Of a stretch of DNA of 64,000 nucleotides, positions 3 to 63,437 are shown one piece after another. This stretch comes from Candidatus Omnitrophota bacterium. Its GTDB lineage: Bacteria > Omnitrophota > Gorgyraeia > Gygaellales > Profunditerraquicolaceae. The notes under the pieces are model-generated. The model was not told the origin of the DNA and made no database searches. It saw only the letters and a program-made list of their open reading frames with translations. The position numbers were made by a program, and so were the translations under genes. Numbering within the stretch: position 1 is the first letter of the stretch; each line of letters starts with the position of its first letter. The stretch spans positions 825 through 64,824 of the forward strand of contig JBHPDM010000003.1 of the NCBI GenBank assembly GCA_042577285.1. Direction: 5' to 3'.

Positions 3-1244
3 CGCTATCTTAAATATCGCGGCTTTAAGGTAAATTTTGTACGCAACATCACCGATATTGACGATAAGATCATCAACCGCGCCAATGAACTCAAAATCGA
101 CTGGAAGGAATTGGTCGGGAAGTATATCTTGAGCTACCAGGAAGATCTTTTAGCGTTGGGTATTGAAAAGGCTGACCACGAGCCCAGGGCAAGCGAAAAT
201 ATTCCGGAGATGGTTGAATATATCAAGGTGCTTCTCGATAAGGCCTTTGCATATGAGTCGGGCGGGGATGTTTATTTTAATGTCAGGAAATTTTCCGGAT
301 ACGGCAAGTTATCCGGGCAGAGCATAGACCAGATGCAGTCAGGCGCAAGGATCGAGCCGAGCAAAAGCAAAAAAGATCCTCTGGATTTCGCCCTCTGGAA
401 GAAGTCGAAGCAGGATGAACCTGCCTGGGATAGCCCGTGGGGCAAGGGCCGGCCCGGATGGCACATCGAGTGCTCAGTAATGTCTCAAAAGTTCTTAAAG
501 ACTGATACCCTTGATATACACGCCGGTGGACGGGACCTGATCTTTCCGCATCATGAGAATGAGATCGCCCAGGGTGAGGCAAGATCCGGAAAACAGTTTG
601 CTAAATATTGGATCCACCACGGCCTTCTGACGATCAACGGCCAGAAGATGTCCAAGTCGCTGGGGAATTTTATCTCGATAAAGGATATCCTGAAAAAACA
701 TAGCGCCGATACCCTAAAAGCTTTCTTCCTGGGCGCGCATTATGCTTCACCGATCGATTATAGCGAGGATCGGATGCGTGAATCCGCAGAGGCTCTAGAG
801 CGGATCGTAATTTTGCTGCAAAAAATAGATTTAAGGCTAAAGACCGCAGACCAAAGACCCAAGACCGCAGACCTTAAAGAGATAGAAAAAATAAAAGATC
901 AATTTATTGAAGCGATGGATGATGATTTTAATTCGCCCCGCGGCCTGGCAGCGATATTTGATCTGGTGAGTTTAAGCAACAAGAAGATAGAAGATGCGGA
1001 TTTTCTCATCCATGCAAAGGCATCCTTAAAGGAGATGCTGGATATCTTCGGGATATCCTTAAAGGTCAAGACGAAGACCAGCGCAATTACCGATAAGGAT
1101 ATTAAAGATAAGATTCAGGCGAGAGAGAAGGCGCGCAAGGATAAGGATTATGCGCTCTCTGATAAGATCCGCAAGGAGCTGGAGGCAAAGGGCGTCATTC
1201 TGGAAGATACAAAGGATGGCACCACCTGGCGCAGAAAATTATAA
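3..1244 (+). CDS. cysS: Cysteine--tRNA ligase, 5'-truncated by the window edge
   Basis: The frame is open from base 3 (RYLKYRGFKVNFVRNITDIDDKII) and is the same frame as track ORF 111..1244. It carries a class I aaRS core (GWHIECS, FPHHENE) and a KMSKS loop (QKMSKSLGN). Confidence 0.95.
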   Translation, partial: RYLKYRGFKVNFVRNITDIDDKIINRANELKIDWKELVGKYILSYQEDLLALGIEKADHEPRASENIPEMVEYIKVLLDKAFAYESGGDVYFNVRKFSGYGKLSGQSIDQMQSGARIEPSKSKKDPLDFALWKKSKQDEPAWDSPWGKGRPGWHIECSVMSQKFLKTDTLDIHAGGRDLIFPHHENEIAQGEARSGKQFAKYWIHHGLLTINGQKMSKSLGNFISIKDILKKHSADTLKAFFLGAHYASPIDYSEDRMRESAEALERIVILLQKIDLRLKTADQRPKTADLKEIEKIKDQFIEAMDDDFNSPRGLAAIFDLVSLSNKKIEDADFLIHAKASLKEMLDIFGISLKVKTKTSAITDKDIKDKIQAREKARKDKDYALSDKIRKELEAKGVILEDTKDGTTWRRKL

Positions 1245-1248
1245 GTAG

Positions 1249-1348
1249 TTTTGCGGGTGGCTTGGACTGATTTTCGAGGTGCGTGATGCACCGAGAAAAC
1301 AGTCCAAGACAGGACCCGCAAAAAACCGACCCTGAGCGAGAAGGTCGG
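1249..1348. other. Long imperfect hairpin (about 32 bp, with a tandem G.A/A.G mismatch) plus a second short hairpin in the cysS-tmk spacer
   Basis: Hand-paired arms: TTGCGGGT/ACCCGCAA, CTTGGACTG/CAGTCCAAG, TTTTC-GA-GGTGC/GCACC-GA-GAAAA. These are followed by CCGACC..GGTCGG. Confidence 0.5.
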
Positions 1349-1381
1349 CAGATTCATTTTATAGCAAAGAGCAGGTTGACT

Positions 1382-1993
1382 ATGAAAGGCAAATTTATTA
1401 CATTTGAGGGCAACGAGGGGTGCGGGAAGAGTACGCAGGCGAGGCTCCTCTCTGATTATCTGAAGCGAAAAGGGCACCGAGTGATTTTTCTGCGCGAGCC
1501 GGGCGGGACAAAAATCAGCGAGAAGATAAGAAGTATTCTTTTAGACGCTGAAAACGATTCGATGTCGCCGGCCTGTGAGATGCTGCTTTATATGGCGGCG
1601 CGCGCTCAGATAGTCCAAGAGATCATAGGCCCTGCGCTTTTGAAAGGTAAGACCGTGATCTGCGACAGATTCCTGGATTCTACCATCGTCTATCAGGGGT
1701 ATGGCCTGGGCCAAAATATAAGTCTTATTAAGAAGCTGGGAAAGGTTTCTACTTACGGGATAAAGCCGGATCTGACGATATTACTGGATGAGGCTACTGA
1801 GGAAGGCCTCAGGCGCTGCGGCAGGGTAAAGGACCGTATTGAGCAAAGGTCGATCAGTTATCATCAGCGCGTAAGACGTGGATACCTGCACCTGGCCTCC
1901 CTCAACCGCCGGCGGATCAAGGTGGTAAAGGTAGAAAAGAATAAAAATCTCACTCAGCGTAAGATCAGGGGGATCGTAGAGGATGTCATTTAA
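1382..1993 (+). CDS. tmk: Thymidylate kinase
   Basis: P-loop FEGNEGCGKST and the dTMP kinase fold pattern (DRF..S..VYQG). The start is moved to ATG 1382 (MKGKFITFEG) because 1283..1381 is hairpin-rich spacer. Confidence 0.9.
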   Translation: MKGKFITFEGNEGCGKSTQARLLSDYLKRKGHRVIFLREPGGTKISEKIRSILLDAENDSMSPACEMLLYMAARAQIVQEIIGPALLKGKTVICDRFLDSTIVYQGYGLGQNISLIKKLGKVSTYGIKPDLTILLDEATEEGLRRCGRVKDRIEQRSISYHQRVRRGYLHLASLNRRRIKVVKVEKNKNLTQRKIRGIVEDVI

Positions 1994-2951
1994 AGATATA
2001 AAGGGACACGCCAGGACTATCGAAAGGCTTAAGGGGTACCGGAAGTCCGGAACCCTGGCCGGCGCCTATCTTTTTAGCGGACCGGAGGGGGTGGGCAAGG
2101 CGCTATCAGCAAGGGCATTTGCCAAGAGTGTAAACTGTTTAGAGGCTGAGGTTGATTCCTGCGATAGATGTATCTCTTGTAAAAGAATCGATAACGCTCA
2201 GCACCCGGATGTCTATTTTATCGAGCCCTCTGATAAAGGAATAATTAAAATAGAATACATCCGCGAGCTTAAAAAACGTATCGCCCTTAAGCCTTACGAG
2301 GCAAAGTTTAAAGTCTTTATTATAAACGAAGCGCAGCGGATGAACGCTGAAGCGCAAAACGCGCTTTTAAAGGTGCTGGAGGAGCCTCCGGCGCATAGCC
2401 TGATCATCCTGGTCAGCTCAAAGCCAGCTTTATTATTTGGGACGATAATTTCACGCTGCCAGGTGGTAAAGTTTTCACCGCTTACCAGAGACTGCCTAAA
2501 GAGTATCCTGCAAAAGGATTACCGGCTGGACTCGGTCCTGGCTCACTTTTTAGCCTATTCCTGCGAAGGCAGGATCGGTTCGGCCTTGAATTTAAAAGAC
2601 CGGGACGCTTTAGGCGAGAAGAACGCGGTGATCGATGCCTTTGACTTGCCGCGCAGGCCGCCCTTCGATACCTTATCAATAGCTGACAGAAGCCAGGCGC
2701 GCAGGCACCTGAATACCTTGAGCCTCTGGTTTCGAGATATATACCTGGCCAAGTCAGGGATAGAGCATTCCCAGATAATCAACATTGACCGCAAGGCAGA
2801 GCTGTTAAAGCTTCCAGACCGTTACAGCTGGGATGAGCTTGACGAGATCCTGAAGTCCATATCGGACTCAATATTTTATCTGGAGCAGAATATAAACATT
2901 AAACTATTACTATCGAACTTACAGGCGCAATTATGGAAAGCAAGATCCTGA
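1983..2951 (+). CDS. holB: DNA polymerase III delta-prime subunit
   Basis: Clamp-loader AAA+ pattern: GPEGVGK, a Cys4 zinc module (CDRCISCKR), an NALLKVLEEPP box and ISRCQ. Confidence 0.85.
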   Translation: MSFKDIKGHARTIERLKGYRKSGTLAGAYLFSGPEGVGKALSARAFAKSVNCLEAEVDSCDRCISCKRIDNAQHPDVYFIEPSDKGIIKIEYIRELKKRIALKPYEAKFKVFIINEAQRMNAEAQNALLKVLEEPPAHSLIILVSSKPALLFGTIISRCQVVKFSPLTRDCLKSILQKDYRLDSVLAHFLAYSCEGRIGSALNLKDRDALGEKNAVIDAFDLPRRPPFDTLSIADRSQARRHLNTLSLWFRDIYLAKSGIEHSQIINIDRKAELLKLPDRYSWDELDEILKSISDSIFYLEQNINIKLLLSNLQAQLWKARS

Positions 2952-6016: not shown

Positions 6017-7134
6017 ACAGGGCAAATGTCTCGATCGTCAAATGTAATGATTATCAGCGCTCCTCGGTGCAGGAGTCTGTTGCCAGGGCGATAGATCTGA
6101 TCGGGGGGATATCGAGTTTTATAAGGCCGCAAAGTAAGGTCCTGGTCAAGCCCAATCTTCTGATGGCAAAGGGGCCTGATTCCGGTATCACCACGCACCC
6201 CGAGGTAGTGCGCGCCGTCGTCAGGATCCTAAAAGGGATAAATTGTCGGGTCATCGTCGGAGACGGGCCGAGCGTCTGGGGGAACAAAATAGAGGATGTG
6301 GATGAGGTCTATGAGAATACCGGCATAAAGCAGGTCTGTCTGGATGAGGGTGTTTCACTGGTAAAATTCGATAAAAGGCGCTGGCATAAGAAATTCCCCT
6401 TAAGCACATGGCTTGATCACTGCGATCATGTAGTAAATCTGCCTAAGTTTAAGACCCATGACCTGACTACTCTCACCGGTGCTATAAAGAACCTCTTTGG
6501 CGTAGTAACCGGGAGCTTTAAGACCGAACTGCATAAGAATTATTATAAAATCGAAGATTTCTCCGCTATCCTTGTAGATATTTATGAAGCGGTAAAGCCT
6601 TCTCTGACCCTAGTTGACGCAGTGGTGGCAATGGAGGGGGATGGGCCGGCAAGCGCCGGAAAGTTACGCAAGCCCCGGCTCCTTTTGGCCGGTTCCGATT
6701 GCGTGGCGCTGGATAGTATCCTGGCTTTGATCATGGGTATAAAGCCGACTGATATCGTAAGCACTAAGCAGGCGGCAAGCAGAGGCCTGGGGGTGGCTGA
6801 TCTCGATTTTATCTCAGTAGCCGGAGAAAAGTTGCAGGATGCCATCGGCGAACCATTTTTGCTGCCGAGTACTTCGATGATCAAGAAGATCCCCGGGCCG
6901 GTGATCGAACTGGCAAAGAAGCTGATCAAATTCCGTCCTTATGTCTTGCGCGAAAACTGCACTAAGTGCCGGGCCTGTATAGATGCCTGTCCCAATAAAT
7001 GCATACAAATGAAGAATGAGTCGATAACCTTTGATTATAAAAATTGTATCTCCTGTTTCTGCTGTCAGGAGGCCTGCCCAACTGCAGCGATTCAAGTGAA
7101 GAAAAGTATTATCGCTAAAATAATCGGCCTCTAA
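6013..7134 (+). CDS. DUF362 domain protein with a C-terminal 2x[4Fe-4S] ferredoxin domain
   Basis: DUF362-like N-terminus (VLVKPNL.., VNLPKFKTH) and two CxxCxxCxxxCP motifs at the C-terminus (CTKCRACIDACP, CISCFCCQEACP). Confidence 0.75.
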   Translation: MNRANVSIVKCNDYQRSSVQESVARAIDLIGGISSFIRPQSKVLVKPNLLMAKGPDSGITTHPEVVRAVVRILKGINCRVIVGDGPSVWGNKIEDVDEVYENTGIKQVCLDEGVSLVKFDKRRWHKKFPLSTWLDHCDHVVNLPKFKTHDLTTLTGAIKNLFGVVTGSFKTELHKNYYKIEDFSAILVDIYEAVKPSLTLVDAVVAMEGDGPASAGKLRKPRLLLAGSDCVALDSILALIMGIKPTDIVSTKQAASRGLGVADLDFISVAGEKLQDAIGEPFLLPSTSMIKKIPGPVIELAKKLIKFRPYVLRENCTKCRACIDACPNKCIQMKNESITFDYKNCISCFCCQEACPTAAIQVKKSIIAKIIGL

Positions 7135-24326: not shown

Positions 24327-24737
24327 GGGGGTGAAAGGGTTCGACCTGAGTAATCAGGGTAAGAGTAGCATGCCGCGGACGCAGGGTTGGCCGCGTTAAC
24401 AATCCTTGCACAATATAAACGCAAACAGAACATCGTTAAACCGCGTTTTTGCACAGCAGCCAGTAATGGTTGCTGCGCCTTTCGCGGGCGTTCCAGTCTT
24501 CAGCCCCCAGTAGGGTTGAAGCCTCTATCCATCCTGCCTACGGGTTGAAATAGAGACTACAGTAGGATAGCTTCGGTAAATTAGCCTTTGGGGCCGAAGC
24601 GAAATTTTAAAAGGCTGCGCTTTGCAAATCCTGCCCTGTAGGAGTTGCAAAGTCAACTTTAATATGCAGGGCTAAGCATGTAGCGGCTTTTATTCTATTA
24701 TCCAGGGACGCCGGTTCAACTCCGGCCACCTCCACCA
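24327..24737 (+). ncRNA. ssrA: tmRNA (transfer-messenger RNA)
   Basis: The 5' end GGGGGTGAAAGGGTTCGAC and the 3' end GGACGCCGGTTCAACTCCGGCCACCTCCACCA form a tRNA-Ala-like acceptor and T-arm. The gene follows smpB. Confidence 0.9.
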
Positions 24738-31680: not shown

Positions 31681-31757
31681 GTCCCTGTAGCTCAGTTGGA
31701 TAGAGCATCTGCCTTCTAAGCAGAGGGTCGCGTGTTCGACTCACGCCAGGGACACCA
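31681..31757 (+). tRNA. tRNA-Arg (anticodon TCT), CCA encoded
   Basis: GTCCCTG acceptor, anticodon arm TCTGC-CTTCTAA-GCAGA, T arm with TTCGACT loop, and 3' CAGGGAC-A-CCA. Confidence 0.9.
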
Positions 31758-31764
31758 GATTATT

Positions 31765-32943
31765 ATGAAAGAATTTAAAAAATACCTGATTACGGCCTGT
31801 ATCATCGTCGCGGCTCTTTACGGAGCTTTATATTTGTCAATACTCTTTCTTGGCAAGACGATCCTGATCAGCCGGCTTAAGGAGTTGACAAAGAAAGATG
31901 TAAGTATCGGGCATTTTGTCCTCAGGCCGCCCTTTAATATCTACCTGGAGAAATTAGATATTAAAGATCTGGCCAGGGCAGATTCGATATCAATTTCACC
32001 AAGCGCAATAGGGTTTTTGACAGGCAATATAGTTTTTAATTCCATTACGGTTAAGAACCCGGAAGTTGTTTATGAGAGGGCAATGGCCGGGAGAGCGCAA
32101 TCATCTGCTGCTGTTTCGTCAGTGGCAACCGGCGCAGGCAAAGAAAAATCACGCTTACGCCTATTCTTGAAGCGCGCGAGGATCGAGAACGGCAAAGTGA
32201 TATTCATCGATCATTCGACAGGGGAAAAGGGGATCAAGTTGATCGTGGAGGAGATAGATTTTCGCCTTGATAATCTCGGCCTTTTGCCCCGCTCTATGCG
32301 TACTAATTTCAAGTTGCAGGGGCGCGTGCCCTGGCAGAGGGATGGATATAAGGGGAAAATTACAGCCGAGGGTTGGTTTAATATCTTTAAGAAAGATATG
32401 CAGGCAGCCTTAAAATTCGAAGATATCGACGGGGTCTATCTCTATCCTTACTATTCGCAATGGGTGGATTTGGATAAGGCGCGCATCGAGAGTGCGAAGC
32501 TTCAATTTACCAGCGATATCGAAGCGGTGGATAATGATCTGACTGCCAAATGCCGCGTTGAGCTGACAGATATCGTACGCCGGCAGCGACTCGTCGATGA
32601 AGAGCCGGGAAAAGAAGAAAAGATCGCTGACGCGGTGCTGGATGTATTCCGGATCCTTAATCAGGGAGGGGTAGTCTTTAATTTTACGATCAGGACCAAG
32701 ATGAACAGTCCGCAGTTTAGCGCAGGCGATATCAAGGAAGCATTTGATGAAAAAGTCGCTCTGGCAAAAGCAAAGAAGAGGTCTGAATTTAAGGTGGAGA
32801 ATGTCTTCGCCTTCCCCGTGAGGTTCCTGGAGGGGTTGGCAGAGGGGGCGCTTGAACTATCCCGGGCGGCTGTAGACGGGACCTACGCCCTGGGCAAGGA
32901 ATTAAAGGACTCGGTAGAGATCGCTTTTACTAAAGAAGAGTAG
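31765..32943 (+). CDS. Membrane-anchored hypothetical protein (DUF748/AsmA-like by composition)
   Basis: An N-terminal TM helix (YLITACIIVAALYGALYLSILFL) followed by a beta-rich repetitive body. The family assignment is from memory only. Confidence 0.4.
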   Translation: MKEFKKYLITACIIVAALYGALYLSILFLGKTILISRLKELTKKDVSIGHFVLRPPFNIYLEKLDIKDLARADSISISPSAIGFLTGNIVFNSITVKNPEVVYERAMAGRAQSSAAVSSVATGAGKEKSRLRLFLKRARIENGKVIFIDHSTGEKGIKLIVEEIDFRLDNLGLLPRSMRTNFKLQGRVPWQRDGYKGKITAEGWFNIFKKDMQAALKFEDIDGVYLYPYYSQWVDLDKARIESAKLQFTSDIEAVDNDLTAKCRVELTDIVRRQRLVDEEPGKEEKIADAVLDVFRILNQGGVVFNFTIRTKMNSPQFSAGDIKEAFDEKVALAKAKKRSEFKVENVFAFPVRFLEGLAEGALELSRAAVDGTYALGKELKDSVEIAFTKEE

Positions 32944-32959
32944 CAGTAAATTGGTTCTT

Positions 32960-33037
32960 GGTGGCTGTAGCTCAATTGGTTAGAGCATTAGACTGTGGCT
33001 CTAAAGGTTGCGGGTTCGATCCCCGTCAGCCACCCCA
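32960..33037 (+). tRNA. tRNA-His (anticodon GTG) with encoded G-1 and CCA
   Basis: G-GTGGCTG acceptor, anticodon arm TTAGA-CTGTGGC-TCTAA, T arm GCGGG-TTCGATC-CCCGT, and 3' CAGCCAC-C-CCA. Confidence 0.9.
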
Positions 33038-33147
33038 AATTTTGTCTCGATTTACTCCGGATTAACACTACCGGTATTCAAATAGCAGCCCCTTGGTAGA
33101 AAAATCCAAAAAAACCTTTTTTCTGACTAATAGCAAGCGAGGCCAGC

Positions 33148-34590
33148 ATTAAATATAAACACGCCTTATTCCTCAATCCCTATATCGAGCGAAGCGCTAC
33201 AAACACGATGTTGCTTTTCCCGCCTACCGGCCTTGAGTATGTGGCTACGAGCGCCAAAGACTTCGTTGATACAATCACGCTCTTAGATTTACGCTATGAT
33301 AAGGATTTTACCGATATAGATAAACTCCTGGAGTTTATATCCAGCTCGATTGATATTATCTGTGTCGGTATCGGCTGGGACCGGCACCTTGAAGAGATCT
33401 GTCAACTGCTTAACCGCATGCCGGATAAGATACCTTTGGTCGTAGGCGGTTATACAGCCACTGAAAAAGTAGAAGAACTTTTTAAAACATGCCCTAGCAT
33501 AGATATTATAGTCAGGGGCGAAGGGGAAGAAACAATACAGGAGATATTAAGAGGCAGGGCGCTTCAGGAGATCCTTGGTATTTCTTACCGGCAAGGCGGC
33601 CGGGTAGTGCACAACCTAAACCGCCCTCTTCCTGATGTCGATAGCCTTGCGGTGCCTGACCGCAGCCTCAGGCGCAACAAATATATTATGTCGGTAAACG
33701 GTATACGCGTAGGGAATTTGACCTTTGATTCAGTATTAAGCGCGCGCGGCTGCCCCTTTGACTGTAAATTCTGCACATTCAGCCTGAATCCCCTGGGCCA
33801 GAAAAGAAAATATTCCGCGCGCAGCGTAGGCTCCGTAGTCGATGAGATCCAGGGCCTGGAAGCAGAGGTGGTACTTTTTAGTGATGATAACTTCTGTGTC
33901 GATCCGCAAAGGGCAGAGGAGATCTGCGATTTGATCATCGAGCGCAAAATTAGAAAGCGTTTCATTGCCCAGGCACGTATTGAAATTGCCAGGCATCCGA
34001 GGCTCTTGGAGAAAATGGTCAAAGCTGGGTTCAAGGCCCTCTTGCTCGGGATAGAATCTCCCCACGACCGGATACTGGCGCAGCTTAATAAAGGCTTTAA
34101 TCAAGAAGCGATAAGAAAGTATTTTGCAGTCCTGCGCAAATACCCTATTTTTTACAGCGGTTACTTTATTTATGGGAATATCGGAGAAACTGAAAAAGAG
34201 ATGCTCTATATCCCGAAATTTGCCAAGGAGATCGGGGTTGATGTTATTGCCTGCAATAAACTGAGGATTGAAAAGTTTTCGCCTTTAAAAGAGCTCGCGC
34301 AAAAAACGCCGGGTTATCATGTTACCGCAAGAGGAGAGCTGTATTCCGATATGTATAGCCATGCCGCCCTAAAAAAAATCGGCAGAAAAATCAGATTTTC
34401 TTTTTATACCCCTTCCCGGTATCTGAAAATACTCTGGAAGAATATTTTTGTAACAAAGTTCATAACTTTTAGCGAAATACTGCCTCTATTTCTTGGTTTG
34501 CCTCGTATCATTGCAGGCGTCGTTGCCAGGGAAAAACAAACAGGCAGGCTCAAAGATTCCCTGAAACGCACTTTTATCAGAAACGTATGA
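33148..34590 (+). CDS. B12-binding-domain radical SAM protein (start codon non-canonical or uncertain)
   Basis: Radical SAM cluster CPFDCKFCTF and a B12-binding-like N-domain. The first ATG is at 33208. The conserved-looking N-terminus (KHALFLNPY..FPPTGLEYVA) is in frame upstream of it, where only ATT (33148) and ATA (33130) are available as starts. Confidence 0.75.
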   Translation: MKYKHALFLNPYIERSATNTMLLFPPTGLEYVATSAKDFVDTITLLDLRYDKDFTDIDKLLEFISSSIDIICVGIGWDRHLEEICQLLNRMPDKIPLVVGGYTATEKVEELFKTCPSIDIIVRGEGEETIQEILRGRALQEILGISYRQGGRVVHNLNRPLPDVDSLAVPDRSLRRNKYIMSVNGIRVGNLTFDSVLSARGCPFDCKFCTFSLNPLGQKRKYSARSVGSVVDEIQGLEAEVVLFSDDNFCVDPQRAEEICDLIIERKIRKRFIAQARIEIARHPRLLEKMVKAGFKALLLGIESPHDRILAQLNKGFNQEAIRKYFAVLRKYPIFYSGYFIYGNIGETEKEMLYIPKFAKEIGVDVIACNKLRIEKFSPLKELAQKTPGYHVTARGELYSDMYSHAALKKIGRKIRFSFYTPSRYLKILWKNIFVTKFITFSEILPLFLGLPRIIAGVVAREKQTGRLKDSLKRTFIRNV

Positions 34591-34641
34591 CGGAATTTAA
34601 GAGAGGGAACCATCTTTCGGCGCGGAAGAACCTCTCTAAAG

Positions 34642-34708
34642 TCCGAATTTTCTTGATAACCGCTAGATTCAGCCCTATAATACATATCTGTAAATAGCGA
34701 GAGGTTTC
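34642..34708 (+). promoter_or_regulatory. 67-bp promoter/leader cassette, copy A (TTGATA-17-TATAAT)
   Basis: 63 of 67 positions are identical to 36644..36710. -35 TTGATA at 34652..34657 and -10 TATAAT at 34675..34680. Confidence 0.6.
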
Positions 34709-34751
34709 CCGGTGCGTCGCCATTAAGGATTGACTAAAATAAAAGGAGGAT

Positions 34752-34910
34752 ATGTTGGCAAGGGAAAATTATTCATATAATAAGCGTCAGAAAGAATTAG
34801 CCAGGAAAAAGAAGGCAGAGGAGAAGATTCGAAGAAAGCTGGAGAGAAAAGCGATGAAGGCCGCGCTTGAGTCTGGGAAGGTCCCCGGTGACCTGCCTGC
34901 CATAGAATAA
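34752..34910 (+). CDS. Unlisted sORF: 52-aa Lys/Arg/Glu-rich small protein
   Basis: AAGGAGGA SD 4 nt before the ATG. Translation: MLARENYSYNKRQKELARKKKAEEKIRRKLERKAMKAALESGKVPGDLPAIE. It is driven by cassette A. Confidence 0.6.
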   Translation: MLARENYSYNKRQKELARKKKAEEKIRRKLERKAMKAALESGKVPGDLPAIE

Positions 34911-34918
34911 AGAAATAC

Positions 34919-34946
34919 TTGCAATTTTTTTTAAAGGCCATATAAT
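34919..34946 (+). promoter_or_regulatory. Sigma-70-type promoter for the CxxC-x17-CxxC sORF
   Basis: TTGCAA, a 16-nt spacer, then TATAAT. Confidence 0.5.
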
Positions 34947-35027
34947 CATAACGTAGGATCAAGGCTTTAGTAGAAACACGCGGCACATCGGATTGGCCGG
35001 TGTGCACTTACTGTGCAAGGAGGAAAA

Positions 35028-35192
35028 ATGGGATACGAGGGTGGTGGTGGCGGATTCGGCGGGCCACGGGAGATGCACAAGGCAGTTTGTTCGGAGTGTA
35101 AGAAGGAGTGCGAAGTCCCGTTTAAACCCAGAAATGATCGTCCGATATACTGCAAGGATTGTTATTCAAAGCGCAAGAACGAAGGCCGTTAA
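35028..35192 (+). CDS. Unlisted sORF: 54-aa Gly-rich protein with a CxxC-x17-CxxC zinc-ribbon-like domain
   Basis: AAGGAGG SD. Translation: MGYEGGGGGFGGPREMHKAVCSECKKECEVPFKPRNDRPIYCKDCYSKRKNEGR. The hand-counted spacing is exactly CxxC-17-CxxC. Confidence 0.75.
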   Translation: MGYEGGGGGFGGPREMHKAVCSECKKECEVPFKPRNDRPIYCKDCYSKRKNEGR

Positions 35193-35237
35193 CTGCAGCA
35201 GGGCGGTAAAATAAATACAGTTTTAGCGTAGAAGCCT

Positions 35238-35277
35238 AAACCGCAAGGGTACGATATTCGGCCTTGCGGTTTTTGTT
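35238..35277 (+). terminator. Intrinsic terminator
   Basis: AAACCGCAAGG..(13 nt)..CCTTGCGGTTT followed by TTTGTTT. Confidence 0.7.
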
Positions 35278-35363
35278 TATCATTTCATAAGCGCAGGGCC
35301 TAAGGTGCCGGAAAATCAGTCAGCTGCTGTGAGCTTATAGCGGGTAAAAAAGGAGGGATTAAA

Positions 35364-35501
35364 ATGAATAGTTGCATGAGGTGCCAAGAGAAGTTATCAC
35401 ATAATTATTTGGTAGCAATATTTACGCTTATAAATGAAAAAAGAAAAAGATTAATAGTGTGTTCAAAATGTAAAGAAATTCTGAATAAAAAGGGGAAGTA
35501 A
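35364..35501 (+). CDS. Unlisted sORF: 45-aa CxxC...CxxC zinc-ribbon-like small protein
   Basis: AAAGGAGGG SD. Translation: MNSCMRCQEKLSHNYLVAIFTLINEKRKRLIVCSKCKEILNKKGK. Its stop lies 9 nt before the next gene. Confidence 0.5.
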   Translation: MNSCMRCQEKLSHNYLVAIFTLINEKRKRLIVCSKCKEILNKKGK

Positions 35502-35510
35502 GGGGGCAGA

Positions 35511-35864
35511 ATGAAGACGATTAATTGCTCGAAATGCAGACAGCAAAAATCTTGTTGTGATTTTGGGGTATGGGTAGATCTGGAAGAAGCCAAGAAAATA
35601 TTATCCCTGGGATTAAAAGGAGATTTCTGTCATCTTGAGGAGGATAAAAGCTTTCCTTCCGGATATAAAGTCGCAACCAGCCCGGAAGATGATCGCTGTT
35701 CTTTCCTTACTCCGGAAGGGCTGTGCGCTATTCACAAAGTCGATTATAATTTAAAACCGGCCCACTGTAGGGAATTCCCGTACGAAAACGGAAGATTATC
35801 CCCGTTTGCAGATTTATTATGTGCGGTGGTTAAATCAAAAAGAAAAAGAAAGAAAAACCGGTAG
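35511..35864 (+). CDS. YkgJ-family cysteine-cluster protein (CxxCxxxxxCC zinc/iron-chelating domain)
   Basis: N-terminal CSKCRQQKSCC motif, further conserved Cys residues (RCSFL, GLCAIH, HCREFP) and a basic tail (KSKRKRKKNR). Confidence 0.7.
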   Translation: MKTINCSKCRQQKSCCDFGVWVDLEEAKKILSLGLKGDFCHLEEDKSFPSGYKVATSPEDDRCSFLTPEGLCAIHKVDYNLKPAHCREFPYENGRLSPFADLLCAVVKSKRKRKKNR

Positions 35865-35870
35865 ATTAAG

Positions 35871-36632
35871 ATGAATATTTTTGTGGGTAATTTGTCGTTT
35901 GACGCCAATGAGAGCGATCTAAATAAGCTCTTTGAGGGTTTCGGGAATGTCGCTTCCGCAATGATCGTGACGCGGAAGGAAAAAAAGGTGCCTAAGTCAA
36001 GAGGGTTTGGTTTTGTCCAGATGCCTGACCAACAGCAGGCGCTCGCTGCGATAGCCGCTCTGTCCGGAAAGGAGTTTATGGGCCGGCCTCTTGATGTTCA
36101 GGCGGCGCGCACTAAGCCTAAAGCAGGCCCGGAGGGTGGAAAAAGAAGGAAGATGCGGCCAGAGATTAATATAGAAGGCCAGCACTATCTCCGTGAAGAG
36201 AAGGATCATAAAACAGGAGGATATAAGGATGGCAGACGCTCGCGTAGCTTTATGATGCGGCGTGCTGCAGCCGGCATCGTAGAAAAGACTGGCCTTAAGC
36301 GGAAAAGCAAAGAGAATCCTATGCGTTGGCGGAAAAAACGAGGGCCGCCTAAGCCTTGGCAGAAGAGTCAGGGGAAGTTTAAGCCCTGGAGGAAGGCCGA
36401 TGACGAATCAAGGCCTTGGAAAAAAACCGCGGGAGGATCCAGTCCTTGGAAAAAAGCTGCAAGAGATTCCGGTCCCCGGAAGAAATCCGGGGGTGAGCCT
36501 AAGCCTTGGCGTAAATCCGATGGGAGTATCAAGCCTTGGAAGAAACCATCGAAAGATGCCAAGCCTTGGAGAAAGAGTAATGGGCGCCCGCAAAAATACC
36601 GCAAAAAACGGACAAATTACGCGAGAAAATGA
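35871..36632 (+). CDS. RRM-domain RNA-binding protein with a long basic (K/R)PW(K/R)K repeat tail
   Basis: RNP2 IFVGNL and RNP1 RGFGFVQM within the first ~85 aa. About 10 PW(K/R)K-type repeats follow. Confidence 0.85.
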   Translation: MNIFVGNLSFDANESDLNKLFEGFGNVASAMIVTRKEKKVPKSRGFGFVQMPDQQQALAAIAALSGKEFMGRPLDVQAARTKPKAGPEGGKRRKMRPEINIEGQHYLREEKDHKTGGYKDGRRSRSFMMRRAAAGIVEKTGLKRKSKENPMRWRKKRGPPKPWQKSQGKFKPWRKADDESRPWKKTAGGSSPWKKAARDSGPRKKSGGEPKPWRKSDGSIKPWKKPSKDAKPWRKSNGRPQKYRKKRTNYARK

Positions 36633-36643
36633 CCTTCCTAATC

Positions 36644-36710
36644 CCGAATTTTCTTGATAACCGCTATATTCAGCCTTATAATACATATCGGTAAATAGCA
36701 AGAGGTTTCC
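36644..36710 (+). promoter_or_regulatory. 67-bp promoter/leader cassette, copy B (TTGATA-17-TATAAT)
   Basis: Near-identical to 34642..34708. -35 at 36654..36659 and -10 at 36677..36682. It lies upstream of the glucan phosphorylase gene. Confidence 0.6.
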
Positions 36711-36732
36711 TCTAAAATAATCCAATACAAAA

Positions 36733-38760
36733 ATGGCAGTCGCTGATCTGACGAAGAAAGATAAAATGTTATCCGAATTTCTCTCCCTGGTGGATGTAGA
36801 GAGATTTGAAGATATCTACAGCCAGGATATCGCAGGAGGGAGATTCTTCGGCATGCCGATGGAAGCGATCATCAACGCTGAAAAGCGCCTGCGCGCTAAA
36901 GATGAAAAATGCATCGCTTACTTCTCTATGGAGTACGGCCTGGGCTCTAATTTTTACTCAAAATTCACGGCTAAGCGTCCGGTCGAGCCGAATAATAAAA
37001 TGCATAAGCACAAGGTCTTTTCAAATTTCCGTCAGGCGGATTATTCCTATACCCTGGACCTGAAGAACCTGATCGACCTGCCCATATACAGCGGCGGATT
37101 GGGGGTTTTAGCGGGCGATACAGTCAAGACCATGGCCGACTATAAACTGCCGGCTGTAGGCGTGGGCATGCTCTGGAATACGGGTTATTTCAGGCAGAAG
37201 TTCTGGTTTAAATACGGCCAGCTTCCGGAGAAGATACATTGGGATCTTTACTCATATCCCGGCCTGATACCATTAAAGAACAGGGTCAAGATCTCATTGA
37301 AGAGCGAGGAGATATACCTGCGCCTATGGAAGTATTACATATATAGTTATAAACGTGATTACGCCGTACCGCTGGTGCTGCTTGATTCGAATATCGAAGA
37401 GAACAATAAAAAGAACCGGCAGCTTACCGATCAGCTTTACAGAAGCGATAATGCCTGGATCAGGATCATGCAGAGGGTGATCCTCGGGATGGGGGGAGTC
37501 GCGGCGTTAAAAGGTTTAGATTACAGCATCGATGCGATGCATTTAAACGAAGGGCATGCGATATTCACTTTTGTAGAAAAGGCCAGGGGGCTTCCCGCAA
37601 GCGATCTGGAGAAGCTCAAGAAACATTTCTTCTATACCTGCCATACGCCGGTGCAGGCCGGACACGACCGCTTCTCTCCCGGGGATCTGAGCAACGTGAT
37701 AAAGGAGGAGGATTTTAAGCTGGTGCAGGAATACGGTACGGATAAAGACGGCCTGATCAACCTTACCCTTCTATCTATGAACGTCTCTTGCGTAATAAAT
37801 GCTGTCTCAAAGGGGCACCAGAAGGTGATGCATCTGCAGTTCCCGGACCACAGAAAAGCGATAAAGTACGTCACAAACGGAGTGCACGCGCACACCTGGA
37901 TCTCTGATAGGTTTAAAGACCTCTTTAATAAATACGCTTCCGAATTAGGCGACATAAAGGCAAATCCGATGGCCTTAAATAAAGTGCAGCGCCTTAAAGG
38001 TAAGCGCGAATTCCGCCTTGACCTCTGGCAGGCACATCAGGAGAATAAGGCCGAGCTCTGCAATATGCTGCACAGCTGGAAGCTCGATAAGGATATCTTT
38101 ACTATCTGCTGGGCGAGGAGGATCGCAGCCTATAAAAGGCCCAGCATGATACTTCATGATACCGAAAGGCTTATCGATATTGCAAAGCGGATAGGCCCGA
38201 TACAGGTGATCTTCGCCGGCAAGGCGCATCCTAATGATGACCTCGGGTTTACCTACATAAACGAGATGCTGGATAGAGTCGACGCTCTTGCAAAGGAATA
38301 TGGTTGCCTTAAGTTTATTATGCTTGAGAATTACGAGACCCTGCTTGCTAAAATCCTGACTTCAAGCGTCGATGTCTGGCTGAACAATCCCCTTCCGCCG
38401 TTTGAGGCCTCCGGAACCAGCGGGATGAAGGCGATTCTAAACGGCGTTCTGCAGTTGACTACCCTTGACGGCTGGGTTCCCGAGGCGGCAAACAGAGATA
38501 TCGGCAGGTTCTTCGGATATAAAAATGAAGACGGCGTATTAGACAAGGAACTTAATCTGCGCATCAGTGAGGACGCTGAAAAACTTTATGAGGCATTAAC
38601 CGGCATGGTAGAACTGTATTATAAGACAAATAATAAGGGCGGAGTCGATATATCTTCTAAATGGATCGAGATGATGATAAATTGCATCTCTTGCTCCGGA
38701 GACTTTAGTACCTACAGGATGCTCGATGAATATAAGCGTAAGATCTGGAGGAGGCCTTGA
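36733..38760 (+). CDS. glgP: Alpha-glucan phosphorylase (GT35, short alpha-glucan family type)
   Basis: PLP-lysine region FEASGTSGMKAILNG, GGLG.LAGD, and HEGH-like NEGHA motifs. Confidence 0.88.
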   Translation: MAVADLTKKDKMLSEFLSLVDVERFEDIYSQDIAGGRFFGMPMEAIINAEKRLRAKDEKCIAYFSMEYGLGSNFYSKFTAKRPVEPNNKMHKHKVFSNFRQADYSYTLDLKNLIDLPIYSGGLGVLAGDTVKTMADYKLPAVGVGMLWNTGYFRQKFWFKYGQLPEKIHWDLYSYPGLIPLKNRVKISLKSEEIYLRLWKYYIYSYKRDYAVPLVLLDSNIEENNKKNRQLTDQLYRSDNAWIRIMQRVILGMGGVAALKGLDYSIDAMHLNEGHAIFTFVEKARGLPASDLEKLKKHFFYTCHTPVQAGHDRFSPGDLSNVIKEEDFKLVQEYGTDKDGLINLTLLSMNVSCVINAVSKGHQKVMHLQFPDHRKAIKYVTNGVHAHTWISDRFKDLFNKYASELGDIKANPMALNKVQRLKGKREFRLDLWQAHQENKAELCNMLHSWKLDKDIFTICWARRIAAYKRPSMILHDTERLIDIAKRIGPIQVIFAGKAHPNDDLGFTYINEMLDRVDALAKEYGCLKFIMLENYETLLAKILTSSVDVWLNNPLPPFEASGTSGMKAILNGVLQLTTLDGWVPEAANRDIGRFFGYKNEDGVLDKELNLRISEDAEKLYEALTGMVELYYKTNNKGGVDISSKWIEMMINCISCSGDFSTYRMLDEYKRKIWRRP

Positions 38761-39515
38761 GTAGGGGGAAGGGTTCGACAAAGAATTCCATGCTGCTCTA
38801 CGGAAAGAACTCAGTCTTTGAGCGGTTAAAGGCAGACCCGCAGAGTATTAAAAAGGTCTTCCTGTTGGATAATTTTGCTGCGCCGCATATAGAGGAGTTG
38901 ATCGGGAAGAAAAATATCCCTTGCGCTCGCCTCGGCTTCAGAGAGTTGAATAAGATCAAGCCCTCTAAAGACCTGCAGGGAATAGTCGCCCAAGTCGATA
39001 GCTTCAGATACGCTGATTTTGACAGTCTGCTTGAGGATCAGCCCGGGAAACAGGCCGCGCTTATCCTTTTGGATAGGATAAATGATCCCCAGAATTTAGG
39101 AGCGATTATCCGTACTGCTGCCTGTTTTGGAGGGTTTGCGGTGGTGATCCCGAAGTTTGAGGCCTGCGAAGTCACTGAGGCGGTTCTGCATGTAGCTTCG
39201 GGCGGGGAAAATTTTGTCCCGGTATCCATGGTATCGAATCTTGCCAATTGCCTGATCAAGGCGAAGAAGAAGGAGTACTGGGTCATCGGGGGGATTATCG
39301 GCGAAGAGGCGCAATACTTAAATAAGATCTCTATTCCTTACCCATTAGCGTTGGTACTCGGCTCTGAGGGGGGAGGGGTCCGCCACGGCCTTGAAAAACA
39401 TCTTGATATAAAAGCGCGCATCCCGATGAGTGGGGCCGATCTTTCCTTTAATGTCGCTCAAGCCTGCGCTGTATTTTGTTATGAGATCGTAAGGCAAAGG
39501 GAAAAAATTTATTAA
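38757..39515 (+). CDS. rlmB: 23S rRNA 2'-O-ribose methyltransferase, SpoU/TrmH family (RlmB-like)
   Basis: LYGKNSV.ERL N-terminal substrate-binding domain, DPQNLGAIIRTA, LVLGSEG.G and LNV..A SpoU motifs. The start is TTG 38757 or ATG 38790. Confidence 0.85.
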   Translation: MSRGKGSTKNSMLLYGKNSVFERLKADPQSIKKVFLLDNFAAPHIEELIGKKNIPCARLGFRELNKIKPSKDLQGIVAQVDSFRYADFDSLLEDQPGKQAALILLDRINDPQNLGAIIRTAACFGGFAVVIPKFEACEVTEAVLHVASGGENFVPVSMVSNLANCLIKAKKKEYWVIGGIIGEEAQYLNKISIPYPLALVLGSEGGGVRHGLEKHLDIKARIPMSGADLSFNVAQACAVFCYEIVRQREKIY

Positions 39516-63189: not shown

Positions 63190-63417
63190 ATAAGTGAGGC
63201 CACAGCTTATGGAGCGTAAGCGAACATAAGCTGTAAGGCCGAACTTATCCCGAGTCACAATCGAAAATAATATTAGTGACGAGGGATCCCTCGCAACAGC
63301 AGATTGATAAACGGTTGCTCGGGATTAATTCGCGCTTATAACTTACTCACACTTGCCGCACAAGCGGCACACCGGCTGTTCCAATACAGCCGAGTGTCGT
63401 GTTCGTAAGTTATGCGC
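63190..63417 (+). other. Candidate structured RNA / long 5' leader (four consecutive hairpin domains)
   Basis: Hand-paired hairpins at 63190..63248, 63248..63286 and 63288..63323, plus a branched domain at 63332..63417. The domain ends just before the AAGGAGG SD of the downstream gene. Confidence 0.35.
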
Positions 63418-63437
63418 TCATTAAGGAGGTGGCGAAG

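Follow-up and report, generated by a model that had tools for sequence, protein, structure and literature searches.

What brings five small genes together in bacteria that are uncultured, ultra-small and widespread, and whose basic cell biology is largely unknown? The question is raised by a 64,000-nucleotide stretch of DNA from a Candidatus Omnitrophota bacterium (contig JBHPDM010000003.1; hereafter the window), in which five co-directional genes are lined up between a B12-binding radical-SAM gene and an alpha-glucan phosphorylase gene. They encode a peptide rich in Lys, Arg and Glu (small open reading frame 1, sORF1), a Gly-rich 54-aa zinc-finger protein, a 45-aa peptide with two CxxC motifs (sORF3), a YkgJ-type cysteine-cluster protein and an RRM protein. 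An earlier note on this DNA had listed the five open reading frames (ORFs), all of which are present, and had suggested that they form an RNA-chaperone or stress module, possibly acquired next to a tRNA-His gene.

Comparison with other genomes shows that the cluster is an inherited gene neighbourhood and not a recently acquired island. Judging from the sequences, we hold with moderate confidence that this vertically inherited Omnitrophota neighbourhood encodes abundant small RNA- or ribosome-associated proteins, which would form an RNA-chaperone or translation-support module. Three of its genes have fewer than 60 codons and are invisible to common ORF cutoffs, as the earlier note had warned for a limit of 60 aa. 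All three are real and belong to strongly conserved families, one of which has thousands of members across phyla and no annotation.

Small protein families and their neighbourhood across species

Length-matched homologues were found for all three of these short genes, and the check that had been proposed for them, pairwise dN/dS (Nei-Gojobori estimates against the window genes), indicates purifying selection. A close relative is available in locus L001, from the single-amplified genome AM-311-N03, which has 91% nucleotide identity to the window.

With sORF1 as the query, an exhaustive profile search gave 2,830 clusters at E ≤ 1e-3, of which 108 reached E ≤ 1e-10; almost all are 42-80 aa long and match at the N-terminus. 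Eleven homologous clusters (47-52 aa) share the invariant N-terminal sequence NYSYxKxQKELARKKKAEEK, and at least one homologue comes from a metagenome-assembled genome (MAG) of Thermodesulfobacteriota, where it lies directly behind a cold-shock domain (CSD) gene. The dN/dS of sORF1 is 0.2-0.5. In the AlphaFold2 model, this Lys/Arg/Glu-rich peptide is predicted to be a single basic helix, which extends from residue 2 to residue 41 and is followed by a disordered tail; the N-terminal helix is conserved and the tail is variable. The gene is real, whereas the length of 52 aa given previously probably has to be corrected to 51 aa, because translation most likely starts at TTG 34755, which has GGAGG 5 nt upstream, and homologues start with MARDNYSY. 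An sORF1-like N-terminus was also observed in P0240, a 146-aa gene call on a 994-nt JGI contig that includes a YqeY/GatB-type domain. P0240 may represent a genuine fusion, or two adjoining genes merged into one call, and could hint at a translation-related link.

The 54-aa protein is a member of a known family, PF23477 (zf_Tbcl_2)/TIGR04272, with 68.8 bits against a cutoff of 27 for the former and 67.7 bits against a cutoff of 36 for the latter. The exact CxxC-x17-CxxC spacing that had been reported for it can be read in the translation as C21-x2-C24-x17-C42-x2-C45. It shares 100% amino acid identity with its counterpart in L001, the genes being separated by 5 synonymous changes, and its dN/dS is 0-0.13. 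In the PDB, a weak similarity to LIM (treble-clef) domains was detected (E 0.0016).

The sORF3 family comprises 32 homologous clusters with 71-93% identity, mostly of exactly 45 aa. Among GTDB species representatives, 34 carry it; nearly all of these are labelled Omnitrophota, and a few MAGs have other phylum labels. Its dN/dS is 0.07-0.13; compared with L001, 7 synonymous and 3 non-synonymous changes have occurred, and the Shine-Dalgarno (SD) sequence is kept despite a 53-nt deletion just upstream. The ~22 nt upstream (GGGTAAAAAAGGAGGAATTAAA) and the first codons are near-invariant in nucleotides across species. The AlphaFold2 model (pLDDT 80) contains a CxxC knuckle, a beta-hairpin and a helix beginning at the second CxxC, and this predicted topology is that of a treble-clef-like zinc finger.

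For the 117-aa protein, the YkgJ-type assignment of the earlier note is supported through homologues. There are 259 homologous clusters, many of which are named YkgJ family and have PF03692, and one homologue, 88% identical to the window protein, reaches 26.9 bits where the PF03692 cutoff is 23. Another, P0044 (NCBI locus tag ACFLZ3_01110, Candidatus Omnitrophota), is 100% identical. The window protein itself has no Pfam match at E ≤ 1, and it is by homology that it can be called YkgJ-type. Its dN/dS is 0.08-0.27. The RRM gene starts 6 nt past the YkgJ stop codon and is probably translationally coupled to the YkgJ gene. Its product matches RRM_1 (PF00076) with 65.4 bits (cutoff 20.7, E 4e-18) and contains the RNP2 motif IFVGNL and the RNP1 motif RGFGFVQM. 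Against the NCBIfam model Rbp_regulator it scores 86.3 bits, under the cutoff of 100, and it is therefore not filed as an Rbp_regulator equivalog. Past RRM_1 there is a conserved GGRRSxSFM...ENPMRWRKK block, and the same architecture occurs in 10 relatives. The C-terminal region contains eight decapeptide repeats, xKPW[RKQ]Kxxxx, which appear in the DNA as a 30-nt period (six copies detected at 36383-36574); five such motifs are present in L001, where 60 nt, equal to two repeat units, are missing, and 0 to 8 in relatives. No family covering the conserved block or the Trp/Lys repeats was found.

Synteny was examined in 278 kb of DNA, made up of 34 loci that are anchored on sORF3 and come from GTDB species representatives. 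In L001 the order is identical to that of the window: radical-SAM gene, sORF1, zinc finger, sORF3, YkgJ, RRM, phosphorylase and SpoU. Between species, gene order around sORF3 is shuffled. Within 3 kb of sORF3, the zinc finger is found in 19 loci, sORF1 and RRM in 15 each, CSD in 10, YkgJ and the B12-radical-SAM gene in 9 each, GIY-YIG in 7, the DEAD-box helicase in 6 and ABC-F in 4; a phosphorylase gene is this close in one locus only, that of L001. The first gene past sORF3 is YkgJ in 7 loci and RRM in 6. The trio of sORF1, zinc finger and sORF3 occurs with wholly different flanks in L011 and L015, pairs of sORF1 with the zinc finger and of YkgJ with RRM occur in further loci, and the run sORF3-(YkgJ)-RRM turns up in different species whose flanks otherwise have nothing in common. 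When all ORFs of the 34 loci were clustered without supervision, the same gene families came out, together with an NMO-like enzyme, an acyltransferase and another 54-aa Cys/His-rich sORF. The latter (MKGATIKKIKTSYKGRRCKYPHCLHILSIYNHETYCHIH...; L028, 4930-5094, and four other loci, 5 species in all) has no Pfam match and does not occur in the window.

It is the company of these genes in other species that leads to the RNA-chaperone or translation-support reading. On this view sORF1 would contribute a basic helix, and RNA would be bound by the two zinc fingers and by the RRM protein; Methanosarcina proteins that have the same zinc-finger domain bind zinc and are abundant (PMC12704099), which is in keeping with it. 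Together the products may form an abundant set of RNA chaperones, or of proteins associated with ribosomes and mRNA, analogous to the CspA/CsdA or the cyanobacterial Rbp/CrhR sets. What stands of the module proposed earlier is that in relatives the small genes adjoin CSD, DEAD-box, RRM and ABC-F genes; its responsiveness to stress is conjecture.

Several points weigh against this reading. Conservation of a neighbourhood is no proof of common function, and an RNA theme does not account for the B12-radical-SAM, NMO-like and acyltransferase genes that keep turning up. CSD, DEAD-box, GIY-YIG and ABC-F genes are all missing from the 64-kb window, so that the RNA theme here rests on relatives. In profile searches, sORF1 had no Pfam, NCBIfam or PDB match, and sORF3 had no relative in these three collections, only sub-threshold zinc-finger noise; Foldseek with the sORF3 model gave no match at E ≤ 0.001 (best E 0.37). 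The sORF3-YkgJ-RRM unit has no evident promoter in the window or in L001. Moreover, the two-hairpin leader of the zinc-finger gene, described below, was tried as a marker of a module regulon and rejected, because housekeeping genes carry it and only 4 of 139 module genes other than zinc fingers do.

The alternative that survives best, although we regard it as unlikely, is that the small basic and zinc-binding proteins are not free chaperones and would be lineage-specific components or partners of the ribosome, for instance additional subunits, assembly factors or hibernation factors. Small, basic and highly conserved proteins with strong SDs and near-consensus promoters would suit this role, as would their neighbours (ABC-F ATPases of the translation-factor type, a DEAD-box helicase and S4-domain proteins among them) and the one sORF1-like sequence that is fused to or adjoins a YqeY/GatB-type protein. 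In size, basic charge and four-Cys zinc site, the small proteins resemble the zinc-ribbon and treble-clef ribosomal proteins bL28, bL31-bL33, bL36 and uS14, and the best Foldseek matches of sORF3, weak as they are, are small 50S ribosomal chains. However, these matches are not significant (E ≥ 0.37, rmsd ~7.7 Å), and with no match at E ≤ 0.001 the resemblance of sORF3 to ribosomal proteins was dropped as evidence. No significant sequence or fold match to the ribosomal proteins was obtained, profile searches with the small proteins matched no chain of any solved ribosome, and no examined locus lies in a ribosomal-protein operon.

The two-hairpin leader of the zinc-finger gene

Comparison of the regions upstream of zinc-finger genes across loci first revealed a structured unit in the 5' untranslated region (UTR). 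The unit has the form ACACCC-N5-UAUCGGAU-N5'-GGUGU, followed by a hairpin of 4-6 bp with a YUNCU-type loop and by AAGGAGG-N5-8-AUG. In the window copy, the stem CAC(G)CGGC/GCCGGUG encloses the loop ACAUCGGAUUG and is followed by UGCAC-UUAC-UGUGCA, and the unit ends directly at the SD AAGGAGG. Its match to the covariance model R1 is weak (27.4 bits; E 2.8e-4 in an unfiltered search), its hairpin 1 includes two non-canonical pairs, and the L001 copy scores 31 bits. Folding of the single window sequence reproduces both hairpins with a z of only -1.2; given this weak thermodynamic support, the case for the motif in the window rests on comparative data.

In a MAFFT alignment of 22 units, 91% of the cells pair, against 37-42% with slid partners, and double-sided changes are seen in 5 of the 9 helix-1 pairs and in all 5 helix-2 pairs. 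Pairing of helix 1 had been a selection criterion for these 22 units. An unbiased test of this helix was made by a metagenome scan in which both N5 arms were left free; it returned at least 120 stretches, and 80 loci were fetched. Fully complementary arms (5/5) were found in 74 of 86 matches and 4/5 complementarity in another 9, the chance of 5/5 being ~0.7%. Helix 2 lay outside the search pattern and is still present and covarying in the metagenome units. The motif corresponds to no Rfam 15 family: the scan of the window at gathering thresholds gave only tRNAs and a tmRNA, and at E ≤ 10 neither the window leader nor a four-unit array of L035 had more than chance matches.

Some units stand alone, others form tandem arrays, with as many as six in L041, or are nested in the loop of another unit (L007, L040, L041 and L047). 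A unit stands on the sense strand within 150 nt upstream of 12 of the 22 zinc-finger genes; the same is true of 4 among 139 sORF1, sORF3, YkgJ, RRM, CSD, DEAD-box, GIY-YIG, radical-SAM and ABC-F genes, including one each of CSD, RRM, sORF3 and sORF1. In metagenomes, units precede genes for GroES, DnaK, MreB, SSB, bL19, RRF, SMC, PurF, chorismate synthase and many lipoproteins, and a start codon lies 21-30 nt past GGUGU in 38 of 83 instances. The unit is a general element of the translation initiation region, which the zinc-finger mRNA carries unusually often.

A second copy is located in the window at 63353-63398 on the minus strand (29.4 bits; loop UAUUGGAA; hairpin 2 GCCGC-UUGU-GCGGC), with no SD behind it. 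It is intergenic, between a plus-strand signal-peptide gene (start near 63427) and a minus-strand gene for a 112-aa membrane protein (start 63091), the latter having its own -10 element downstream of the unit. This copy is an orphan or else belongs to a long leader. Units were also observed within coding sequence. An in-frame, unit-derived 'HLALSDGKCA' occurs in the sORF1 tail of L021 (2302-2496; 65 aa instead of 51) and in the RRM linker of L037 (~6164-6850); unit sequence is likewise present in the RRM gene of L032 (7019-7062) and, in antisense, in the radical-SAM gene of L035 (3961-4004, minus strand). These cases suggest that the unit may also spread at the DNA level.

In this respect it recalls repetitive extragenic palindromes and mosaic elements of the REP/BIME type, which are likewise short dispersed hairpins, sometimes tandem or nested. 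REPs, however, are mostly 3' or intergenic and near-identical within a genome, whereas the leader unit always has the orientation of the gene downstream, stops 21-30 nt short of the start codon, and differs between neighbouring copies by compensatory changes in the stems. The leaders bound by CsrA/RsmA and the decoys CsrB/RsmZ offer another comparison. The UAUCGGAU loop contains GGA and the SD AAGGAGG follows ~20-25 nt later, which is the CsrA layout of a GGA in a hairpin loop with a second GGA at the SD within ~10-60 nt; single units before many genes and tandem arrays of up to six add to the likeness. On the other hand, CsrA targets feature neither the invariant CACC(C)/GGUG closing stem nor an obligatory second hairpin, and tblastn for CsrA, Hfq and ProQ found none in the window and 1.1 Mb of fetched loci, a fragmentary sample.

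A speculative extension, to which we attach only a small probability, is that the unit serves as the cis element of an undescribed, Omnitrophota-wide post-transcriptional control. Its trans partner would be encoded in the cluster, most plausibly by the zinc-finger gene, which would regulate itself through a multi-unit leader, with sORF1, sORF3 and the RRM protein as co-factors. If this were true, the zinc finger and the leader would constitute a functional analogue of CsrA and its GGA-hairpin targets, assembled from unrelated parts.

Layout of the locus and the question of acquisition

The features of the locus are collected in Table 1. The five genes are arranged in three expression units: P1 drives sORF1; P2 and the structured leader precede the zinc-finger gene, which is closed by the terminator; and sORF3, YkgJ and RRM are close-packed.

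Table 1. Genes, signals and repeats in and around the small-gene cluster (positions in the window).
Feature	Position	Strand	Remarks
tRNA-His	32961-33037		1.7 kb upstream of cluster
B12-binding radical-SAM gene, 460 aa	33208-34590		Upstream flank of small-gene cluster
67-nt direct repeat, copy 1: promoter P1 and first ~28 nt of sORF1 leader	34643-34709	+	
sORF1, 52 aa (51 aa if TTG 34755 start)	34752-34910	+	
Promoter P2 of zinc-finger gene, TTGCAA-16-TATAAT	34919-34946	+	10/12 consensus positions
Two-hairpin 5'-UTR RNA unit, 44 nt	34975-35018	+	Covariance model R1, 27.4 bits
Zinc-finger protein, 54 aa, Gly-rich, CxxC-x17-CxxC	35028-35192	+	PF23477 zf_Tbcl_2 / TIGR04272
Intrinsic terminator, 11-bp stem then UUUUUGUUU	35238-35281	+	-21.5 kcal/mol, z = -4.7
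sORF3, 45 aa, CxxC...CxxC	35364-35501	+	First gene of sORF3-YkgJ-RRM unit
YkgJ-type cysteine-cluster protein, 117 aa	35511-35864	+	Start 9 nt past sORF3 stop
RRM protein, 253 aa	35871-36632	+	N-terminal RRM_1
67-nt direct repeat, copy 2: same promoter (36654-36682) and leader start	36644-36710	+	
Alpha-glucan phosphorylase gene	36733-38760	+	Downstream flank, driven from repeat copy 2

The promoter and terminator that had been proposed for the zinc-finger gene alone are confirmed by their scores and by their conservation across species. The P2 block ACTTGCAnTTTTTTTTAAAnGCCnTATAAT past the sORF1 stop is also found in L001, L009, L015, L019, L021, L022 and L030, and the terminator motif AAACCGCAAGG...CCTTGCGGTTTT after the gene is kept in L001, L022, L030 and L040. 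A strong SD, claimed for every gene, is seen as an AGGAGG-type sequence at all small genes but one, the exception being the RRM gene. ORFs of at least 60 aa at 34993-35214 (plus strand), 34723-35007 (minus) and 34967-35155 (minus) are shadow frames over the real genes.

The five genes are bracketed by a 67-nt direct repeat, whose copies are 94% identical and spaced 2001 nt apart. Two copies occur in the 64 kb, where 0 are expected by chance, and no further copy of the repeat or of its leader part was found in the window. Each copy consists of TTGATA-17-TATAAT (11/12 consensus positions) and ~28 nt downstream; in copy 1, TTGATA is at 34653-34658 and TATAAT at 34676-34681. With the same repeat before both, sORF1 and the phosphorylase gene have a common near-consensus promoter and 5' end. 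L001 has both copies, copy 1 being identical between the two organisms and copy 2 diverged. In other species sORF1 has a different, mutually conserved promoter (GCTTGCA...TGTTTGnAGTAAAAT), and the duplication is thus specific to this lineage. We read it as promoter capture or as a local rearrangement through recombination at the promoter; the repeats would make the 2-kb segment prone to deletion or amplification by recombination. The phosphorylase gene has no SD-like sequence before its ATG (AATCCAATACAAAAATG, window 36711-36735).

The AT-rich segment that the earlier note had picked out by eye (35340-35870) is indeed exceptional: its GC content of 0.38 falls at the 0.5th percentile (window 0.483 ± 0.032), and tetranucleotide distance is at the 97.6th percentile. 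In the window, sORF3 has a GC content of 0.275 and 0.30 at third codon positions (GC3). Across 38 instances, sORF3 genes are AT-rich everywhere, with a mean GC of 0.29 and GC3 of 0.33 against a locus GC of 0.44, and YkgJ genes are likewise below the locus GC in the genomes examined. As both genes are low in GC in all of these genomes, the AT-rich dip is a family trait.

These observations bear on the idea that the cluster came in by horizontal transfer, as a cassette or island inserted near tRNA-His with the 67-nt repeats as its boundaries. The repeats do bracket the five genes, the composition does stand out, a tRNA gene lies 1.7 kb upstream, and sORF1 of other species is under a different conserved promoter. 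Nevertheless, we consider acquisition of this kind very unlikely. Genes for an integrase, recombinase or transposase were not found, a search of 32000-39000 gave no repeat of the tRNA 3' end, the ORFs between 33038 and 36733 (radical-SAM gene and the five genes) contain no recombinase domain, and no att-like repeat is present near tRNA-His, L001 included. The 67-nt repeats are a promoter with the start of a leader and are not att-like, and the AT-richness is a property of the sORF3 and YkgJ genes in every genome examined. The linkage of radical-SAM gene, sORF1 and zinc finger in distant species makes the left junction ancestral.

The cluster is present in the 91%-identical L001 and, reshuffled, in most of the 34 species. 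Adjacency to the phosphorylase gene (glgP) is seen in L001 only, and adjacency to tRNA-His is not conserved; even in the window, the tRNA-His gene that had been described as close to the cluster is present but separated from it by the 460-aa radical-SAM gene. What does vary near tRNA-His is a spot upstream of the radical-SAM gene and outside the cluster: between the tRNA and this gene, L001 has ~2 kb more than the window (138-2110 against 33045-33092), with four ORFs (79, 64, 96 and 284 aa), of which the 284-aa one encodes a PilZ protein. The suggested acquisition next to tRNA-His is not supported, as neither an integrase nor a tRNA-derived repeat was found and the trio of small genes occurs with unrelated flanks in many species. 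A local rearrangement through recombination at the duplicated promoter may have taken place, and this would be a reshuffling of resident genes, not a foreign acquisition.

Two further observations were made elsewhere in the window. A listed 403-aa ORF (GTG 31732) starts within a tRNA-Arg gene (31681-31757), and its true start is probably a downstream ATG at ~31765 (MKEFKKY...); the protein has homologues close to the small-gene cluster in L040 and L046. A tmRNA gene is located at 24327-24737 (Rfam match, 169.5 bits). The tag peptide given by ARAGORN, ASNGCCAFRGRSSLQPPVGLKPLSILPTG, is unusually long and is without the usual hydrophobic ...LAA-type end. The tag reading frame may be mis-assigned.

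Remaining readings and known systems

Proteins with the CxxC-x17-CxxC module have been studied in Methanosarcina mazei, where they bind zinc, as shown by inductively coupled plasma mass spectrometry, and are abundant; their function is unknown, and a role in transcription has been proposed for them by analogy with TFIIB (PMC12704099). The zinc-finger proteins of the cluster could correspondingly be DNA-binding or transcription-associated factors, such as TFIIB-like ribbons or nucleoid proteins, and not RNA binders. The JGI label 'DNA-binding protein' on some sORF3 homologues points the same way. These designations, however, are automatic or analogy-based, and the genomic company of RRM, CSD, DEAD-box and ABC-F genes is RNA-centred, which leaves this alternative with very little probability. 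The Gly-rich N-terminus of the zinc finger, which we take to resemble RGG or Gly-rich RNA-binding tails, was also counted against it.

Least probable of all is that sORF1, and perhaps the other sORFs, would be the substrate of the adjacent B12-radical-SAM enzyme, as a precursor resembling those of ribosomally synthesized and post-translationally modified peptides or as a methylated protein: the enzyme gene is directly upstream of sORF1 in about 5 species (the window, L001, L007/L008, L021 and L035) and within 3 kb of sORF3 in 9 of 34 loci, and the conserved N-terminal part and variable tail of sORF1 superficially look like leader and core, but most sORF1 loci have no adjoining radical-SAM gene (L002, L003, L009, L011 and L170), the associated enzymes fall into at least two groups that are 24-28% identical to each other, no protease or exporter/transporter genes were found, the conserved part is a 100% charged helix with a tail devoid of Cys/Ser/Thr-rich cores, and the family counts ~2,830 clusters of near-uniform design.

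The RNA-chaperone or translation-support reading can be set beside systems described in other organisms; a search of the literature on Omnitrophota together with RNA motifs, cold shock or small proteins returned nothing relevant. Because these small genes travel with CSD, RRM and DEAD-box genes, they are a testable candidate for the RNA-chaperone and translation-support toolkit of the phylum. The covarying, SD-adjacent leader motif, found before dozens of genes and absent from Rfam, provides an entry to post-transcriptional regulation in a phylum without genetics.

With the small zinc proteins of M. mazei (TIGR04272/PF23477), the window protein has the domain, its spacing and the small size in common, zinc binding having been shown for the M. 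mazei members. It differs in being bacterial and single-domain with a Gly-rich N-terminus, and the Omnitrophota gene stands in fixed synteny with sORF1 and sORF3, usually with the two-hairpin leader in front.

The closest parallels for the cluster as a whole may be CspA and CsdA (DeaD) of E. coli and Rbp and CrhR of cyanobacteria. In these, too, small CSD or RRM binders go with a DEAD-box helicase, the genes are small and have strong promoters with long or structured leaders, and an RRM protein may carry a low-complexity tail. The window itself has no CSD or DEAD-box gene. In the model organisms, moreover, such genes are scattered members of a regulon, whereas in Omnitrophota they are physically clustered across the phylum and are joined by a zf_Tbcl_2 zinc finger, a YkgJ protein and two hitherto undescribed families of small proteins.

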